Positions 10,401 to 51,690 of a stretch of 64,000 nucleotides of DNA are shown here, in pieces. Below the pieces are notes generated by a model. That model was not told the origin of the DNA, made no database searches, and worked only from the letters and a program-made list of their open reading frames with translations. Position 1 is the stretch's first letter. Every line of letters begins with the position of its first letter. Origin of the DNA: Escherichia coli (lineage in GTDB: Bacteria > Pseudomonadota > Gammaproteobacteria > Enterobacterales > Enterobacteriaceae); assembly GCF_009931435.1 (NCBI RefSeq), contig NZ_CP043414.1. The stretch is one strand, 5' to 3'. Both the position numbers and the translations under genes were made by a program.

Positions 10401-12400
10401 CGATTGGTGATTTTAACGGTGAATTGCGCGTCATGGCACAAGCATGGACGGCAGATGATTTCGGTAGCAACGAAAGCAAAGTGGTTGTTGCCGCACCGGT
10501 GATAGCAGAACTGAATATGCCGCGCTTTATGGCCAGCGGTGACACCTCACGTCTGACGCTGGATATCACTAATCTTACCGATAAACCGCAAAAACTGAAC
10601 GTTGCTCTGACCGCCAGTGGCTTGCTTGAACTGGTTAGCGATTCACCCGCAGCCGTTGAATTAGCGCCGGGCGTGCGAACCACGCTGTTTATCCCGGTGC
10701 GAGCATTGCCGGGTTATGGTGATGGTGAAATTCAGGCCACTATTAGCGGGTTAGCGTTACCGGGCGAAACCGCTGCCGATCAGCATAAGCAGTGGAAAAT
10801 GGGTGTCCGTCCGGCATTTCCGGCACAAACCGTCAATTACGGTACGGCGTTGCAGCCTGGTGAGACATGGGCGATTCCAGCTGATGGATTGCAAAACTTC
10901 TCGCCTGTTACGCTGGAAGGGCAATTGTTGTTGAGCGGCAAACCACCGTTGAATATTGCACGTTATATCAAAGAGTTAAAAGCGTATCCGTACGGTTGTC
11001 TGGAGCAAACCGCCAGCGGCCTGTTCCCGTCACTTTACACCAACGCAGCCCAACTGCAGGCGTTGGGAATCAAAGGCGACAGTGATGAGAAGCGCCGTAC
11101 GGCAGTCGATATCGGCATTTCTCGTTTACTGCAAATGCAACGTGATAACGGTGGCTTTGCGCTGTGGGATAAAAACGGTGATGAAGAGTACTGGCTGACG
11201 GCTTACGTGATGGATTTTCTGGTCCGCGCAGGTGAGCAGGGTTACAGCGTGCCGACAGAAGCCATTAACCGGGGGAATGAGCGTCTACTGCGCTATTTAC
11301 AAGATCCGGGCATGATGTCGATTCCGTATGCGGATAATCTCAAAGCCAGTAAATTCGCCGTACAGTCTTACGCTGCGCTGGTGCTGGCCCGTCAGCAAAA
11401 GGCACCGCTGGGTGCGCTGCGTGAAATCTGGGAGCATCGTGCCGATGCTGCGTCTGGATTACCGCTGCTGCAACTTGGCGTTGCGCTGAAAACCATGGGC
11501 GATGCAACGCGTGGTGAAGAAGCGATTGTGCTGGCGCTGAAAACGCCGCGCAATAGTGATGAGCGGATATGGCTGGGTGATTACGGAAGTCCACTGCGCG
11601 ACAACGCATTGATGCTCTCCTTGCTGGAAGAGAACAAATTGCTACCCGATGAGCAGTACCCTCTGCTGAACACACTTTCGCAGCAGGCGTTCGGTGAACG
11701 CTGGTTATCAACTCAGGAAAGTAACGCGCTGTTCCTGGCTGCCCGTACGATTCAGGATTTACCGGGCAAATGGCAGGCGCAAACGTCTTTCTCTGCTGAG
11801 CTGCTGACAGGTGAGAAAGCGCAAACCAGCAATCTGAATAGCGATCAACTTGCCACCTTACAGGTGACCAACAGTGGCGATCAGCCGTTATGGCTGCGTG
11901 TGGATGCCAGCGGATATCCGCAATCCGCCCCTTTACCGGCGAGCAATGTGCTGCAAATCGAGCGCCATATTCTTGGCACTGACGGTAAGAGCAAATCGCT
12001 GGATTCGTTACGTAGCGGCGATCTGGTACTGGTCTGGTTGCAGGTCAAAGCCAGTAACAGCGTGCCGGATGCTTTGGTCGTTGATTTACTGCCTGCTGGC
12101 CTGGAACTGGAAAACCAGAACCTGGCTAACGGCAGCGCCAGCCTGGAGCAAAGTGGTAGCGAAGTGCAAAACCTACTCAGTCAAATGCAACAAGCGAACA
12201 TTAAGCATATTGAGTTTCGTGACGATCGCTTTGTGGCGGCGGTTGCCGTTGATGAATATCAACCAGTCACGCTGGTGTATCTGGCGCGGGCGGTAACGCC
12301 GGGAACATACAATGTTCCGCAACCAATGGTGGAATCGATGTATGTTCCCCACTGGCGGGCGACTGGCGCGGCTGAAGATCTGTTGATTGTCAGACCGTAA
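7433..12400 (+). CDS. yfhM: Alpha-2-macroglobulin family lipoprotein YfhM (ECAM)
   Basis: 1655-aa ORF; lipoprotein signal with lipobox LAGC; intact thioester motif CLEQ (YPYGCLEQTASG, ~10997-11008); stop directly abuts pbpC start. Confidence 0.9.
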   Translation: MKKLRVAACMLMLALAGCDNDNNDNAPTAVKKDAPSEVTKAASSENASSAKLSAPERQKLAQQSAGKALTLLDLSEVQLDGAATLVLTFSIPLDPDQDFSRVIHVVDKKSGKVDGAWELSDNLKELRLRHLEPKRDLIVTIGKEVKALNNATFSKDYEKTITTRDIQPSVGFASRGSLLPGKVIEGLPVMALNVNNVDVNFFRVKPESLPAFISQWEYRNSLANWQSDKLLQMADLVYTGRFDLNPARNTREKLLLPLGDIKPLQQAGVYLAVMNQAGRYDYSNPATLFTLSDIGVSAHRYHNRLDIFTQSLENGAAQQGVEVSLLNEKGQTLTQATSDAQGHVQLENDKNAALLLARKDGQTTLLDLKLPALDLAEFNIAGAPGYNKQFFMFGPRDLYRPGETVILNGLLRDADGKALPDQPIKLDVIKPDGQVLRSVVSQPENGLYHFTWPLDSNAATGMWHIRANTGDNQYRMWDFHVEDFMPERMALNLTGEKTPLTPKDEVKFSVVGYYLYGAPANGNTLQGQLFLRPLREAVSALPGFEFGDIAAENLSRTLDEVQLTLDDKGRGEVSTESQWKETHSPLQVIFQGSLLESGGRPVTRRAEQAIWPADALPGIRPQFASKSVYDYRTDSTVKQPIVDEGSNAAFDIVYSDAQGVKKAVSGLQVRLIRERRDYYWNWSEDEGWQSQFDQKDLIENEQTLDLQADETGKVSFPVEWGAYRLEVKAPNEAVSSVRFWAGYSWQDNSDGSGAVRPDRVTLKLDKASYRPGDTIKLHIAAPTAGKGYAMVESSEGPLWWQEIDVPAQGLDLTIPVDKTWNRHDLYLSTLVVRPGDKSRSATPKRAVGVLHLPLGDENRRLDLALETPAKIRPNQPLTVKIKASNKNGEMPKQVNVLVSAVDSGVLNITDYVTPDPWQAFFGQKRYGADIYDIYGQVIEGQGRLAALRFGGDGDELKRGGKPPVNHVNIVAQQALPVTLNEQGEGTVTLPIGDFNGELRVMAQAWTADDFGSNESKVVVAAPVIAELNMPRFMASGDTSRLTLDITNLTDKPQKLNVALTASGLLELVSDSPAAVELAPGVRTTLFIPVRALPGYGDGEIQATISGLALPGETAADQHKQWKMGVRPAFPAQTVNYGTALQPGETWAIPADGLQNFSPVTLEGQLLLSGKPPLNIARYIKELKAYPYGCLEQTASGLFPSLYTNAAQLQALGIKGDSDEKRRTAVDIGISRLLQMQRDNGGFALWDKNGDEEYWLTAYVMDFLVRAGEQGYSVPTEAINRGNERLLRYLQDPGMMSIPYADNLKASKFAVQSYAALVLARQQKAPLGALREIWEHRADAASGLPLLQLGVALKTMGDATRGEEAIVLALKTPRNSDERIWLGDYGSPLRDNALMLSLLEENKLLPDEQYPLLNTLSQQAFGERWLSTQESNALFLAARTIQDLPGKWQAQTSFSAELLTGEKAQTSNLNSDQLATLQVTNSGDQPLWLRVDASGYPQSAPLPASNVLQIERHILGTDGKSKSLDSLRSGDLVLVWLQVKASNSVPDALVVDLLPAGLELENQNLANGSASLEQSGSEVQNLLSQMQQANIKHIEFRDDRFVAAVAVDEYQPVTLVYLARAVTPGTYNVPQPMVESMYVPHWRATGAAEDLLIVRP

Positions 12401-43606: not shown

Positions 43607-43802
43607 GAGCTAAGGACTCTATTAGGAGTAGAGCGGCCATATTGTTCGTCTGAACAGCCTGTAGACAGCTCTATTATTGAGACATGGTATTTTTCGTGGT
43701 ATCTGCTAAGTAGTTTGTTTCAAGGCATTGATTTATTTATATTTTATTTTCTCATTGATAGCTGAGTGGGAATGATTTGATCCCTGCACTATGAATTAGC
43801 AA

Positions 43803-43835
43803 AACCCTCTGTTACTACAGAGGGTTTTTTATACT
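43803..43835. terminator. Hairpin (aaaccctctgttactacagagggtttttt) downstream of yfgI at the right edge of the insertion
   Basis: 10-bp stem with T-run on the plus strand and TTTTGC on the minus strand; 34 nt beyond the yfgI stop. Confidence 0.5.
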
Positions 43836-43868
43836 CACGAATCATAGGATTGAAGTTACTGACATCGC

Positions 43869-44408
43869 TTAGTTAAACCAGCTGTCCGATTTGTTCTCTT
43901 CTGCTTTGCCCACGCTTTTCATCAGATCGCGACCGCCTTCAGTCATATTCCTGTTTGCGTCAGCTTCAGATTGCACCACATCGGTTTGCGCAGCTTTGTG
44001 CTTCAGTTCCTGATCGATAAATTCGTTTTCTCGCTTAACGCGGGCTTCTTCTTTCGCCAGCGCCAGTTTTTGTTTCTGAATCTCTAAGCTGCGTAGCTCA
44101 TCTTCATAACTTTGATCGCGTTTCTTGTCCGCAGTGGCTTCGGCGTCCAGTTTATCCTGACGAGCTTTCTTATTTGCCGCTGCCGTTGCCGCTCTTTTGT
44201 TAGCGGCGGCCTGGGCGTTTGCGCGACGTTGCTTCTCTTGCTGGATTTCCCTGTTGCGCTCCGCGACCCATTCGTCATGCTGCCTTTGCTCTTCATTTTT
44301 ACCTTGCTGTTCCGCTTCTGCGACAGCAGAGAGTTGATCCTGCAATGATGAGGCGATAGCCGGATAGCTTAAGGAGGCTAAGATGGCGCAAAGAAAAACT
44401 TTCTTCAT
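43869..44408 (-). CDS. yfgI: YfgI (secreted/periplasmic coiled-coil protein)
   Basis: 179-aa ORF with signal peptide MKKVFLCAILASLSYPAIA and charged low-complexity body; conserved position relative to yfgH. Confidence 0.8.
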   Translation of the reverse strand: MKKVFLCAILASLSYPAIASSLQDQLSAVAEAEQQGKNEEQRQHDEWVAERNREIQQEKQRRANAQAAANKRAATAAANKKARQDKLDAEATADKKRDQSYEDELRSLEIQKQKLALAKEEARVKRENEFIDQELKHKAAQTDVVQSEADANRNMTEGGRDLMKSVGKAEENKSDSWFN

Positions 44409-44942: not shown

Positions 44943-45252
44943 TATTCCTTGTTATACACATTACGAAAAATAAGACATTTAAGATCATCAAAAGAGGAAA
45001 GTAAATGTATTGCGTATAAAGGAATAGATTAAATTTATTAAAATTCATGTGGAAAATAATTTATAAAAATACATCATTAAAACATATGTATTAATTTTAT
45101 ATTTATTTCGCAGCCAAACAGGATAAACATCAGTCAGGACAAAGACGTAAAATTTAAGATGAAAGAATATCTGCCGCTTTGATAATCTCAAAGAGCAACT
45201 GCATCCGACAGCGAGGTGCCGTTATGTTCAGTGAAGGTGGAGAAGGTAACCG

Positions 45253-45444
45253 CTAACGTTGTACCGGTGATTCGACGGAGAGTGTGGATTGTTGAGCTTC
45301 TTTTTTGCTCTGATGGTGCTGCCAGGCACCGACGGACGAGTAGATAAAGCGGCCAAAGAAGAAGATAAAGCTGATGAGCAGTACGATACGGGTCATGCGA
45401 CTGTTAAATCGGTGTCGTTTTCGCATACTGGTTGCCTGACTCAC
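45253..45444 (-). CDS. yfgG: YfgG small membrane protein
   Basis: 63-aa ORF with one hydrophobic helix (IVLLISFIFFFGRFIY); conserved position between yfgH and pdeF. Confidence 0.65.
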   Translation of the reverse strand: MSQATSMRKRHRFNSRMTRIVLLISFIFFFGRFIYSSVGAWQHHQSKKEAQQSTLSVESPVQR

Positions 45445-45795
45445 AAAAGGTTCCTTGAAGTATGTCCCACGCCGTGGACGGTACTTACATTAAGGCACAA
45501 CAGGACAAAATGGTCAATTCTTCGTTATGTAAAAAAGCGTCAGTGGATACATATTTTAATGTTATGGAAGTTAATTTAATTATTTACAATGATGATGTAA
45601 TAATGATGAATTAACATGATAAACGTAATAATTCATTAATCAGGGTTATTTTGTTTGATATATATCAATTGGAACTTTCATATGACACTTAGAATCAATG
45701 CTCTCTATAGTGATGAATAATCATCATTCGAAGTCAGGTGGGATGCCTGTCTGAATACACCTCCTTCACGATGTGGGGGATTCTGCTGAGCATCT

Positions 45796-48039
45796 ATGAA
45801 ACTGAATGCAACCTATATAAAAATACGTGATAAATGGTGGGGGCTTCCGCTGTTCCTGCCTTCTTTCATCTTGCCCATTTTCGCCCATATTAATACTTTC
45901 GCGCATATTTCTTCCGGTGAGGTTTTTCTCTTTTACCTGCCTTTGGCACTGATGATCAGCATGATGATGTTTTTCAGCTGGGCGGCATTGCCAGGGATCG
46001 CCTTAGGGATTTTTGTCCGCAAATATGCAGAGCTGGGTATTTACGAAACGCTCTCATTAACAGCTAATTTTATTATCATTATCATTCTCTGTTGGGGCGG
46101 TTACAGGGTCTTTACTCCCCGGCGTAACAACGTTTCACATGGTGATACCCGTTTAATTGCCCAGCGTATATTCTGGCAGATTGTATTTCCTGCAACGCTG
46201 TTTCTAATACTTTTCCAATTTGCTGCGTTTGTTGGATTACTGGCGAGCAGAGAAAATCTGGTCGGCGTCATGCCTTTTAACCTCGGGACCTTAATCAATT
46301 ATCAGGCCTTACTGGTGGGCAATCTGATTGGTGTTCCGCTGTGCTACTTCATCATTCGGGTGGTGCGAAATCCGTTTTATTTACGCAGCTATTATTCGCA
46401 ATTAAAACAGCAAGTTGATGTCAAAGTCACCAAAAAAGAGTTCGCGCTCTGGCTACTGGCATTAGGTGCGTTGTTGTTGCTGTTATGCATGCCGTTAAAT
46501 GAAAAAAGCACGATTTTCAGCACCAATTATACCTTGTCATTATTGCTACCCCTGATGATGTGGGGAGCCATGCGCTATGGTTATAAGTTGATTTCGCTGC
46601 TCTGGGCGGTCGTGCTGATGATCAGCATCCACAGCTATCAAAATTACATTCCCATTTATCCTGGCTATACCACGCAACTGACCATAACCTCCTCCAGTTA
46701 TCTGGTATTCTCTTTTATTGTCAATTATATGGTTGTACTGGCAACCCGTCAGCGAGCGGTAGTCAGACGCATTCAGCGGCTTGCGTATGTGGACCCGGTG
46801 GTTCATCTGCCAAATGTTCGCGCCCTGAATCGCGCGTTGCGTGATGCCCCCTGGTCTGCGCTTTGTTATTTACGCATCCCCGGCATGGAAATGCTGGTTA
46901 AGAACTATGGCATCATGCTACGGATTCAATACAAGCAAAAACTTTCTCACTGGCTGTCACCATTGCTGGAACCGGGTGAAGATGTTTATCAGCTTTCGGG
47001 TAACGATCTCGCGCTGCGACTGAATACAGAATCGCACCAGGAGCGCATTACCGCACTGGATAGCCATCTCAAGCAATTTCGTTTCTTTTGGGATGGAATG
47101 CCGATGCAACCGCAGATTGGCGTCAGTTACTGCTATGTGCGCTCGCCAGTGAATCATATCTACTTACTGCTGGGAGAGCTAAATACGGTCGCCGAACTTT
47201 CCATCGTGACCAACGCCCCGGAAAATATGCAGCGTCGCGGGGCAATGTATTTGCAACGCGAATTGAAAGATAAAGTCGCGATGATGAATCGGCTACAGCA
47301 GGCGCTGGAACACAACCATTTTTTCCTGATGGCCCAGCCGATTACCGGTATGCGTGGTGATGTCTACCATGAGATCCTTCTGCGCATGAAAGGTGATAAT
47401 GATGAACTGATCAGCCCCGACAGCTTCTTGCCGGTCGCGCACGAATTTGGTTTATCGTCGAGTATCGACATGTGGGTCATTGAGCATACGCTGCAATTTA
47501 TGGCTGAAAACAGAGCGAAGATGCCCGCTCACCGTTTTGCGATTAATCTGTCGCCAACCTCGGTATGTCAGGCTCGTTTTCCCGTTGAAGTCAGTCAGCT
47601 GCTGGCTAAATACCAGATTGAAGCGTGGCAACTTATTTTTGAAGTCACCGAAAGTAATGCGCTGACCAATGTTAAGCAGGCGCAAATCACCTTGCAGCAT
47701 CTTCAGGAATTAGGCTGCCAGATTGCGATTGATGATTTCGGCACCGGCTACGCCAGCTATGCGCGGCTTAAAAATGTGAATGCCGATCTCCTTAAAATTG
47801 ACGGCAGTTTTATCCGCAATATTGTGTCAAATAGTCTGGATTACCAGATAGTGGCGTCGATTTGTCACCTGGCGCGAATGAAGAAAATGCTGGTAGTGGC
47901 AGAGTACGTTGAAAACGAAGAGATCCGCGAGGCGGTGCTTTCTTTAGGGATAGATTATATGCAGGGTTATCTTATTGGTAAGCCGCAACCGTTAATTGAT
48001 ACGCTGAATGAAATCGAACCCATTCGCGAAAGTGCCTGA
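45796..48039 (+). CDS. pdeF: Cyclic-di-GMP phosphodiesterase PdeF (YfgF): MASE1 membrane domain, degenerate GGDEF, EAL
   Basis: 747-aa ORF; multi-TM N-terminus; no intact GG(D/E)EF (SGNDL at expected place); EAL-domain motifs EVTES and DDFGTGYAS. Confidence 0.85.
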   Translation: MKLNATYIKIRDKWWGLPLFLPSFILPIFAHINTFAHISSGEVFLFYLPLALMISMMMFFSWAALPGIALGIFVRKYAELGIYETLSLTANFIIIIILCWGGYRVFTPRRNNVSHGDTRLIAQRIFWQIVFPATLFLILFQFAAFVGLLASRENLVGVMPFNLGTLINYQALLVGNLIGVPLCYFIIRVVRNPFYLRSYYSQLKQQVDVKVTKKEFALWLLALGALLLLLCMPLNEKSTIFSTNYTLSLLLPLMMWGAMRYGYKLISLLWAVVLMISIHSYQNYIPIYPGYTTQLTITSSSYLVFSFIVNYMVVLATRQRAVVRRIQRLAYVDPVVHLPNVRALNRALRDAPWSALCYLRIPGMEMLVKNYGIMLRIQYKQKLSHWLSPLLEPGEDVYQLSGNDLALRLNTESHQERITALDSHLKQFRFFWDGMPMQPQIGVSYCYVRSPVNHIYLLLGELNTVAELSIVTNAPENMQRRGAMYLQRELKDKVAMMNRLQQALEHNHFFLMAQPITGMRGDVYHEILLRMKGDNDELISPDSFLPVAHEFGLSSSIDMWVIEHTLQFMAENRAKMPAHRFAINLSPTSVCQARFPVEVSQLLAKYQIEAWQLIFEVTESNALTNVKQAQITLQHLQELGCQIAIDDFGTGYASYARLKNVNADLLKIDGSFIRNIVSNSLDYQIVASICHLARMKKMLVVAEYVENEEIREAVLSLGIDYMQGYLIGKPQPLIDTLNEIEPIRESA

Positions 48040-48046
48040 ACAGCGA

Positions 48047-48069
48047 GGGCCGACATTTCTCGTCGGCCC
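48047..48069. terminator. Hairpin between convergent pdeF and ppx (gggccgac atttctc gtcggccc)
   Basis: 8-bp GC stem in the 38-nt gap between convergent stops; no strong T-run. Confidence 0.35.
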
Positions 48070-48077
48070 GCAAAGCA

Positions 48078-51690
<3,613 letters not shown>

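Follow-up and report, generated by a model that had tools for sequence, protein, structure and literature searches.

Sequence and fold analysis of Escherichia coli PdeF (YfgF) supports a phosphodiesterase with a degenerate GGDEF domain and an FNR-dependent promoter

The 64,000-nt stretch of Escherichia coli DNA analysed here (the window) contains, at 45796..48039 on the plus strand, an open reading frame of 747 aa with an ATG start. In a 99.9%-identical genome, RefSeq labels the same coding sequence 'cyclic-guanylate-specific phosphodiesterase PdeF'. The protein is equal in length to K-12 PdeF (b2503; NP_416998.1) and identical to it at 741 of the 747 residues. The six differences (L24F, F82I, S122A, A209V, A313V and E534D) are conservative, and none lies inside a motif. 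The SGNDL, EILLR, EVTES and DDFGTGYAS motifs, the FNR box and the TAGAAT -10 hexamer are the same in K-12 and in the window, as are the neighbours of pdeF, namely guaA, yfgI, yfgH, yfgG, ppx and ppk. According to the open reading frames and annotation, yfgG is divergent and lies upstream of pdeF, while ppx-ppk is convergent and lies downstream. By these comparisons the gene is the orthologue of pdeF (yfgF), which encodes one of the 29 catalogued E. coli GGDEF/EAL proteins and belongs to the core genes of the species; it is annotated in 5425 of 5426 complete genomes. The 2.9-kb segment that carries it has a copy of at least 99% identity in only 2 of 5425 complete genomes. The gene and its domains are as follows:

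45796..48039, plus strand: pdeF (yfgF) coding sequence, MASE1, degenerate GGDEF and EAL, 747 aa (open reading frame, RefSeq annotation)
45838..46755, plus strand: MASE1 membrane domain, aa 15-320 (Pfam PF05231)
46699..46788, plus strand: long helix connecting the GGDEF-like domain with the final membrane segment, aa 302-331 (AlphaFold2 model)
46768..47271, plus strand: degenerate GGDEF-fold domain, tested as aa 325-492 (family profile, AlphaFold2 and Foldseek)
47287..47985, plus strand: EAL domain, c-di-GMP phosphodiesterase by prediction, aa 498-730 (Pfam PF00563)

The two ends of the protein were readily assigned. Pfam matched MASE1 with 237.2 bits (E 3e-70, gathering cut-off 29.8, profile positions 1-299 of 299), and a Kyte-Doolittle scan showed several hydrophobic segments in this region. 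The EAL model matched with 238.7 bits (E 7e-71, cut-off 31.3, profile positions 2-236 of 236). Sequence matches in the PDB included the EAL domains of RbdA, MucR, MorA and PA3825, and Foldseek superposed the PdeF EAL domain on EAL crystal structures with TMt 0.87–0.91 and an rmsd of about 2 Å. The domain HMM check proposed in a first-pass annotation of this DNA thus recovered MASE1 and EAL and missed GGDEF, for which profile and fold tests were needed.

The middle of the protein is invisible to standard models. Pfam GGDEF (PF00990) gave no match to the whole of PdeF at E ≤ 1, and no family was found with aa 321-497 alone at E ≤ 10; likewise, Seshasayee (2010) reported no Pfam GGDEF match for YfgF. 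A phmmer search of aa 321-497 alone against the PDB returned nothing significant, the best GGDEF match being MorA (E 1.3), and the homologues retrieved with the middle region were mostly gene fragments from close relatives. NCBIfam yielded 16 partial matches to PdeF (DibA, PRK10060, DosP and others), all far under their cut-offs, and no PdeF-specific model. A single sequence thus does not suffice to establish a GGDEF domain here, which is why a family profile and a model of the structure were required. The family profile of this domain alone matched only GGDEF structures (RbdA, 7.6e-6; 3mtk, 1.3e-4; DgcZ, 1.9e-4). The AlphaFold2 model of the domain had a pLDDT of 92.5, and all of its top 50 Foldseek matches in the PDB were GGDEF domains, with TMq of about 0.6–0.77. 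A model of the tandem (aa 301-747) matched the GGDEF-EAL crystal structures of RbdA, MorA, PA0575, DosP and LapD. On the strength of the profile and the predicted fold, the middle region is assigned as a GGDEF-fold domain that is not a cyclase; a domain that Pfam does not see can still be firmly assigned in this way. In the same tandem model, residues 2-31 form a helix (pLDDT ~96), and this stretch, aa 302-331, may act as a signalling helix.

The motifs on which the functional reading depends are listed here:

46996..47010, plus strand: SGNDL, degenerate counterpart of GG(D/E)EF, aa 401-405 (alignments; Spurbeck 2012)
47371..47385, plus strand: EILLR (within HEILLR), the eponymous EAL signature, EIL being aa 526-528, with E526 and R530 (near-invariant alignment columns)
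47641..47655, plus strand: EVTES, metal-binding and catalysis motif, aa 616-620, with E616, T618 and E619 (near-invariant columns)
47731..47757, plus strand: DDFGTGYAS, D646 and D647 plus loop 6, aa 646-654 (near-invariant columns)

The first-pass annotation had read SGNDL at the place expected for GG(D/E)EF, and column-for-column alignment bears this out. In the phmmer alignment to RbdA/PA0861 (5xgb), SGNDL lies opposite GGDEF ('yqlsgndlalrl' against 'arlggdefgill'), and in a MAFFT alignment of 136 sequences it occupies the block where canonical members read ARLGGDEF. In the AlphaFold2 model it sits in the hairpin that joins strands aa 396-399 and 405-410. The finding that would have overturned this reading, an intact GGDEF elsewhere, did not appear: neither GG[DE]EF nor a near-variant occurs elsewhere in PdeF or in the six frames of 45401-48100.

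Active-site mapping showed that the losses extend well beyond the signature. We used the residue numbers of PleD, which we take to be D327, K332, N335, D344 and R366. In the columns of the 136-sequence alignment, the Mg-binding D327 is replaced by R360, the catalytic K332 by E365, the guanine-binding N335 and D344 by V368 and I377, R366 by Q399, and GGEEF by SGNDL. The column of the inhibitory RxxD (I) site, five residues ahead of the signature, holds E392-P-G-E395, and no R..D pattern is present anywhere in the protein. By this mapping, the GGDEF-like domain is without every residue that a cyclase requires. Since the signature, the Mg2+- and guanine-binding residues and RxxD are all lost, it should be incapable of c-di-GMP synthesis, and it is predicted to bind neither GTP nor c-di-GMP. 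The same degeneracy is seen in each of the 28 PdeF-like family representatives, including those with as little as 20% identity. Compared with K-12 b2503, pdeF has a pN of 0.0035 and a pS of 0.108 (a synonymous divergence of 10.8%), hence a pN/pS of ~0.03, and aa 314-533 are free of any amino-acid change; the degenerate domain is therefore under purifying selection. In line with these results, the GGDEF domain of YfgF was reported to be catalytically inactive (PMC3718329). This inactive domain was also reported to enhance phosphodiesterase activity at physiological Mg2+, a role that had been left out of the first reading of the sequence. We also considered the near-invariant Cys357 of the GGDEF-like domain as a family-specific redox sensor, and rejected this because canonical GGDEF-EAL relatives have the same cysteine ('ALCFLDLDQFK').

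The EAL domain, by comparison, kept its catalytic positions, as the earlier reading of intact EVTES and DDFGTGYAS motifs had held. One detail needs correction: EVTES is indeed the E-x-T-E motif of metal binding and catalysis, but the eponymous EAL is the EIL of E526-I-L528. The near-invariant columns are E226, L228 and R230 at EILLR, E316, T318 and E319 at EVTES, and D346, D347, F348, G349 and G351 at DDFGTGYAS (+300 for PdeF numbering). The family-wide near-invariant residues Q514, E526, R530, N584, E616, E619, D646 and D647 are kept in PdeF, and so are K667, D669, E703, E706 and Q723. A competent EAL domain, as defined in RocR, has E175, N233, E265, E268, D295, K316 and E352 for metal binding and catalysis, and Q161, R179, D296 and D318 for the substrate (PMC2952852); with the correspondence made through motif context, all of these positions are retained in PdeF. 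Loop 6 reads DFGTGYAS against the motif DFG(T/A)GYSS, so that the first Ser of GYSS is Ala. The GYAS variant is also found in several other PdeF-like family members in the alignment, and K-12 YfgF, which has the GYAS loop, was reported to be active. Table 1 of Spurbeck et al. (2012) gives the motifs of yfgF as SGNDL / EILR / QRDD / TE / ENEEDKEQ.

Published enzymology agrees with this mapping. The enzymology of YfgF was reportedly described by Lacey and co-workers in 2010 (doi 10.1099/mic.0.037887-0), as cited in PMC3718329 and PMC12419081. Hydrolysis of c-di-GMP to pGpG is reported for YfgF of both K-12 and Salmonella, with pGpG acting as an inhibitor, and K-12 YfgF reportedly formed no c-di-GMP from GTP. 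The E526A substitution abolished the phosphodiesterase activity of Salmonella YfgF, and in CFT073 the deletion phenotypes of yfgF were complemented by a heterologous phosphodiesterase (Spurbeck et al., 2012). The residue pattern, with GGDEF functional residues replaced and EAL residues kept, together with the published work on K-12 and Salmonella YfgF, supports the earlier view that PdeF of the window would be a phosphodiesterase only.

Upstream of pdeF, the AT-rich region that had been taken as a sign of complex regulation contains the following elements:

45445..45795, no strand: AT-rich divergent spacer between yfgG and pdeF, 351 nt, 34.5% GC (composition)
45489..45517, minus strand: predicted yfgG promoter, TTGACC-17-CTTAAT (hexamers as in PMC3946193)
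45655..45668, plus strand: FNR box TTGATATATATCAA, matching TTGAT-N4-ATCAA perfectly (consensus scan)
45682..45711, plus strand: putative overlapping sigma-70-like promoter, ATGACA-18-TATAGT (consensus scan, 10/12 matches)
45690..45695, plus strand: TAGAAT, the -10 hexamer belonging to the FNR-dependent class II promoter of pdeF (position; hexamer named in PMC3718329)

The spacer runs from the yfgG start (45444, minus strand) to the pdeF ATG. Its GC content compares with 51.4% for the window and places it in the lowest 0.9% among all 351-nt stretches. Only 3 differences separate it from K-12, versus 37.8 expected at the synonymous rate, which makes it ~12-fold better conserved than the synonymous sites of pdeF, and 4534 of 5422 E. 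coli genomes carry it at 99% identity or more. It has the layout of a class II FNR promoter, with the FNR box centred ~41.5 bp ahead of the start and a -10 hexamer unaccompanied by a good -35 element; transcription probably starts near 45703, as judged from the spacing to the FNR box centre at 45661.5. The box is the published FNR box of E. coli yfgF at -41.5, and transcription of K-12 yfgF was reported to be FNR-dependent and induced anaerobically (PMC3718329). The perfect FNR consensus occurs twice in the 64 kb; the second occurrence, at 12249-12262, falls at the yfhM/pbpC coding junction and was set aside. With one mismatch allowed there are 5 sites versus 2.35 expected; the FNR consensus by itself is therefore weak, and the pdeF site rests on position and literature.

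Other regulators may also act on this spacer. The RpoD SELEX table of PMC3946193 includes it as a site with an H-NS flag and gives the hexamers ATGACA and TATAGT for yfgF. BasR was shown by EMSA to bind the yfgF promoter. The best candidate for a BasR/PmrA-type direct repeat (YTTAAK-N5-YTTAAK) in the spacer, at 45624-45640, has 2 mismatches in very AT-rich DNA and is unconvincing. Rfam found no credible structured RNA in the leader and spacer, the only match being a human lncRNA model (E 0.38), and the putative 5' leader of pdeF folds no better than shuffled sequences (z = -0.63). The suggestion of complex regulation is thus borne out in part, by the class II FNR promoter, the RpoD SELEX listing with its H-NS flag, the BasR EMSA and the conservation of the spacer.

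Taken together, PdeF is very probably an inner-membrane c-di-GMP phosphodiesterase with MASE1, degenerate GGDEF and EAL domains, expressed from an FNR-activated promoter. The EAL domain, in which no metal-binding or catalytic residue is missing, would convert c-di-GMP to pGpG. The GGDEF-fold domain would not synthesize c-di-GMP, and its likely role is that of a scaffold, structural or for dimerisation, by which the EAL domain is positioned and stimulated. The long helix would join this domain to the MASE1 membrane module and might relay a signal. Transcription would proceed mainly from the class II promoter in the AT-rich spacer, and because this promoter is FNR-activated, PdeF should be made when oxygen is absent; binding of H-NS and BasR in the spacer may add further control. 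The SGNDL motif, the active EAL domain and the FNR promoter have all been published before. The observation is correct and ordinary, and it carries little weight as a discovery, as both the PdeF protein and its promoter are in print.

An alternative explanation might be that the main role of PdeF is independent of c-di-GMP. MASE1 would then modulate aspartate taxis in response to redox state, and phosphodiesterase activity would be secondary. Salmonella YfgF suppressed the aspartate ring even in a strain without c-di-GMP, or as the E526A variant. This effect on aspartate chemotaxis, which the first reading of the sequence had not mentioned, needed a motif in MASE1 (PMC3718329) that is present in PdeF of the window:

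46432..46440, plus strand: MASE1 loop motif K213-K214-E215 (same residue numbers as Salmonella YfgF)

However, the phenotype required sustained ectopic aerobic expression (PMC3718329), strong purifying selection acts on the catalytic residues of the EAL domain, and the CFT073 phenotypes could be complemented by a phosphodiesterase from another source. A main role of this kind is unlikely, and it would add to the phosphodiesterase explanation and not replace it.

Two further ideas are, even when taken jointly, quite improbable. The conservation of the spacer might reflect an undescribed element beyond FNR, H-NS and BasR, for instance the product of a 50-aa ORF annotated by PGAP at 45462-45614. 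Alternatively, the conserved, nucleotide-blind GGDEF domain might have gained a partner- or ligand-binding role that couples redox sensing by MASE1 to the EAL domain.

Comparison with characterized relatives bears on another possibility, that the degenerate domain senses GTP and activates EAL allosterically, in the manner of PdeA (CC3396) from Caulobacter or RbdA from Pseudomonas. RbdA of P. aeruginosa (PA0861; 5xgb, 5xgd, 5xge) is the best solved-structure match to PdeF (E 1.9e-47 over aa 343-733), also by fold, and like PdeF it pairs a GGDEF domain in tandem with an EAL domain that is active. Its GGDEF domain was crystallised with GTP (5xgd), and the enhancement of activity by the YfgF GGDEF domain would also fit a sensor. 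Yet RbdA has an intact GTP-binding GGDEF motif and a PAS input, whereas PdeF has lost the nucleotide-binding residues and has a MASE1 input. Caulobacter crescentus PdeA (CC3396; EAL structures 3s83, 3u2e, 4hjf) is a phosphodiesterase with a non-catalytic GGDEF domain, and its EAL fold matches that of PdeF with TMt ~0.88. With its variant motif GEDEF, the CC3396 GGDEF domain is still able to bind GTP, which acts as an allosteric activator, and the GGDEF-like domain of PdeF is far more degenerate, to the point where the Pfam model fails on it completely. All Mg2+-GTP positions are replaced (R360, E365, V368, I377, Q399 and SGNDL), and the reported stimulation is related to Mg2+ and was not described as GTP-dependent. 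GTP sensing is therefore very unlikely in our assessment; unlike for the GTP-sensing degenerate GGDEF of CC3396 or that of RbdA, there are residue-by-residue grounds to expect no nucleotide binding.

That PdeF both makes and breaks c-di-GMP, as the GGDEF-EAL tandem common to bifunctional or dual-active relatives such as MorA might suggest, is hardly credible given the absence of GG(D/E)EF everywhere, the lost catalytic residues, the family-wide degeneracy and the literature on an inactive GGDEF domain. It is just as implausible that the EAL domain serves as a c-di-GMP receptor without enzyme activity, like LapD or FimX, whose GGDEF-EAL modules are among the structural and sequence matches, since all catalytic and metal-binding positions are retained and phosphodiesterase activity, with its loss in E526A, has been reported.

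Among the E. coli proteins, the paralogue PdeA (YfeA) resembles PdeF in having MASE1, a degenerate GGDEF (PGSEL) and a consensus EAL domain; family representatives with PGSEL or PGNEL have ~33–37% identity with PdeF in the alignment. PdeA is expressed aerobically, and PdeF was proposed to replace it under anaerobiosis. YfeA, in contrast to YfgF, did not reproduce the aspartate-ring phenotype (PMC3718329).

Downstream of pdeF, we read one more feature from the sequence:

48047..48069, no strand: GC-rich hairpin GGGCCGAC-7 nt-GTCGGCCC, flanked by the stop codons of the convergent genes pdeF and ppx

The hairpin is absent from the terminator-scan list because it has no T-run; it might serve as a terminator.

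The pdeF (yfgF) reading frame is the lone long ORF in its place, and every string that the first-pass annotation had quoted from its product was located:

45796-48039, + strand: pdeF ORF, ATG start, 747 aa
aa 15-320, + strand: MASE1 (Pfam, 237 bits)
aa 401-405 (nt 46996-47010), + strand: SGNDL
aa 498-730, + strand: EAL (Pfam, 239 bits, whole profile length)
aa 616-620, + strand: EVTES
aa 646-654, + strand: DDFGTGYAS

The Pfam scan of the full-length protein thus recovered MASE1 and EAL but gave no GGDEF match, and the middle region scanned alone matched no family at E ≤ 10. YfgF likewise lacked a GGDEF match in an earlier study (Seshasayee et al., 2010). Hence, the claim that SGNDL occupies the position expected to carry GG(D/E)EF required separate testing, and the fold had to be shown by other means.

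Four agreeing lines of evidence show that the middle domain (tested as aa 325-492) is a GGDEF domain with SGNDL at its signature position, as the first-pass annotation had read it. First, a phmmer search of whole PdeF against the PDB paired aa 343-733 with the GGDEF-EAL portion of RbdA/PA0861, PdeF 'yqlsgndlalrl' facing 'arlggdefgill'; the MorA and DosP alignments begin at aa 306-322. The EAL match could drive these alignments, and phmmer found nothing significant in the PDB for the middle region by itself, so a wider homologue set was gathered (150 representatives from an exhaustive HMMER search, 136 of them aligned). Second, in this alignment the canonical GGDEF-EAL relatives have ARLGGDEF in one gap-free block, where PdeF has YQLSGNDL. 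All 28 sequences representing the MASE1-type PdeF-like family have a degenerate signature (SGASL, SGHDL, PGYDL, PGSEL etc.). Third, a profile built from aa 325-492 of the PdeF-like family only (alignment A3) gave significant E-values exclusively for GGDEF structures: RbdA (7.6e-6), 3mtk (1.3e-4) and DgcZ (1.9e-4 and 6.3e-4; 3tvk, 4h54), followed by DosC and others. Fourth, AlphaFold2 models of aa 301-747 (pLDDT 94.8) and of aa 325-492 alone (pLDDT 92.5) adopt this fold. The tandem model fits the crystallised GGDEF-EAL modules of RbdA, MorA, PA0575, DosP and LapD over ~430–450 columns, and the top 50 of 50 Foldseek matches of the isolated domain are GGDEF domains (E 3e-9 to 6e-7, TMq ~0.6–0.77). 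SGNDL lies in the modelled hairpin that joins the strand at aa 396-399 to the one at aa 405-410, the place of the GGDEF hairpin. An intact GGDEF motif elsewhere would contradict this reading; PdeF contains neither GG[DE]EF nor a close variant, and no frame of 45401-48100 encodes one.

The functional residues of the diguanylate cyclase PleD include D327, K332, N335, D344, R359xxD362, R366 and GGEEF. With these roles assigned from PleD and the columns taken from the family alignment, the correspondence is as follows:

Mg-binding Asp (PleD D327): PdeF R360
catalytic Lys (PleD K332): PdeF E365
guanine-binding Asn (PleD N335): PdeF V368
guanine-binding Asp (PleD D344): PdeF I377
inhibitory site (PleD R359xxD362): PdeF E392-P-G-E395
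phosphate-binding Arg (PleD R366): PdeF Q399
signature (PleD GGEEF): PdeF SGNDL

Because these canonical residues are replaced, the middle domain is predicted to be non-catalytic and to bind neither GTP nor c-di-GMP. In this it would differ from the degenerate GGDEF domain of CC3396, which senses GTP. Though degenerate, the domain is conserved: between aa 314 and 533 no amino acid differs from K-12, against a synonymous divergence of 10.8%. This fits a reported non-catalytic role, since the GGDEF domain of YfgF raises phosphodiesterase activity at physiological Mg2+ according to a later summary of Lacey (2010).

At every strongly conserved EAL column, judged in two alignments (A1 and A2), PdeF has the near-invariant residue of the family: Q514, E526, L528, R530, N584, E616, T618, E619, D646, D647, K667, D669, E703, E706 and Q723. 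These are the positions that define an intact EAL site (the RocR set, PMC2952852). For yfgF, Table 1 of Spurbeck et al. (2012) gives SGNDL for GGDEF, EILR for EALxR and the consensus QRDD / TE / ENEEDKEQ. The EAL catalytic positions are intact, as had been claimed, but EVTES is the downstream E-x-T-E motif, and the eponymous EAL is E526-I-L528. Loop 6 deviates slightly, with GYAS in place of GYSS; several family members share GYAS, which does not conflict with the reported activity of the K-12 protein. Salmonella YfgF loses activity in E526A, and its numbering is collinear with that of PdeF here (E526 is the Glu of EILLR; K213-K214-E215 hold the same positions). The view of PdeF as a phosphodiesterase only is well founded, given a middle domain without cyclase residues, the retained EAL positions and the published E526A effect; both the observation and its interpretation were correct.

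In PdeF, MASE1 is the membrane module, the long helix at aa 302-331 of the AlphaFold2 model a connector, the GGDEF-fold domain predicted to be nucleotide-blind, and the EAL domain catalytically complete. Helix and GGDEF-like domain may form a dimer scaffold relaying the state of MASE1 to EAL. Expression is reported to be anaerobic and driven by FNR. Phosphodiesterase activity and product inhibition by pGpG are reported as well. The effect of MASE1 on aspartate taxis is c-di-GMP-independent and requires K213-K214-E215 (PMC3718329), and MASE1 has been proposed to confer proteolytic turnover.

The gene order guaA, yfgI, yfgH, yfgG, pdeF, ppx, ppk1 is that of K-12, where pdeF is b2503. By megablast, segment 45200-48100 was found in 5425 of 5426 complete E. 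coli genomes, chromosomal every time, and is annotated there as 'pdeF: cyclic-guanylate-specific phosphodiesterase PdeF' between yfgG and ppx. Relative to K-12, the codons show 54 synonymous and 6 non-synonymous differences (pS 0.108, pN 0.0035; L24F, F82I, S122A, A209V, A313V, E534D), so the orthologue is intact, and the purifying selection on it is strong. Identity of at least 99% over these 2.9 kb occurs in just two of the 5426 genomes, strain 2020CK-00188 (human rectal swab, USA) and strain R32_14_1F (goat). The allele lineage is thus uncommon and, since the remaining genomes are 95–99% identical, the lineage behind the window has been sampled sparsely.

Upstream, the spacer between the divergent yfgG and pdeF contains the following features:

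45445-45795: pdeF spacer, 351 nt, 34.5% GC
45517->45489, - strand: predicted yfgG promoter TTGACC-17-CTTAAT
45655-45668, + strand: FNR box TTGATATATATCAA, perfect consensus
45682-45711, + strand: candidate sigma-70-like promoter ATGACA-18-TATAGT, overlapping the FNR promoter
45690-45695, + strand: -10 hexamer TAGAAT of the pdeF promoter

Its GC content ranks in the bottom 0.9% among windows of equal size. Complex regulation was a fair inference from this AT-rich DNA, and FNR, H-NS and BasR inputs are largely documented already; gene and promoter are both known. The published class II FNR-dependent yfgF promoter has exactly this box, at -41.5, and TAGAAT (PMC3718329), which would place the transcription start near 45703 with a leader of ~93 nt. 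The RpoD genomic-SELEX table gives ATGACA-18-TATAGT for yfgF, supplies the yfgG promoter located here and flags H-NS in the spacer (PMC3946193). BasR bound the yfgF promoter in EMSA and repressed it 2.3-fold; no convincing BasR box was found in the spacer. Rfam gave no family match in spacer or leader, and the leader fold was nothing unusual.

The spacer differs from K-12 at only 3 of 351 positions, where the synonymous rate of pdeF would predict 37.8 differences (Poisson P ~4e-13) and the rate of the whole CDS 9.5 (P = 0.014). In 4534 of 5422 genomes its identity is at least 99%. It is unusually conserved, much more so than flanking coding DNA, and the constraint over its entire length may go beyond what the known FNR, H-NS and BasR sites explain.

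Within it, RefSeq/PGAP calls a 50-aa 'hypothetical protein' (WP_000017552.1, 45462-45614, + strand), placed upstream of the FNR box. No corresponding gene is annotated in the K-12 RefSeq record, and the single K-12 difference inside this ORF, a synonymous GCT to GCC, is uninformative either way. A second very AT-rich spacer, yfgH-yfgG (44943-45252, ~310 nt, GC ~23–26%), is less conserved, with only ~95.5% identity to K-12. Just one more perfect FNR consensus occurs in the window, TTGATGAATATCAA at 12249-12262. It lies at the yfhM/pbpC junction, in a 700-nt stretch that shares only 80–95% identity with almost every other E. coli genome and is much more divergent than the pdeF region.

Between the convergent stop codons of pdeF and ppx, a 38-nt gap holds a perfect, GC-rich 8-bp inverted repeat (GGGCCGAC-7 nt-GTCGGCCC, 48047-48069), which the terminator scan missed because neither side has a T-run. 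Over 43734-43900, in the guaA-yfgI spacer, the ungapped K-12 alignment runs out of register, indicating an indel; this spacer also carries a hairpin with a T-run behind it (CTCTGTTACTACAGAGGGTTTTTT, ~43807-43830), likely a terminator.
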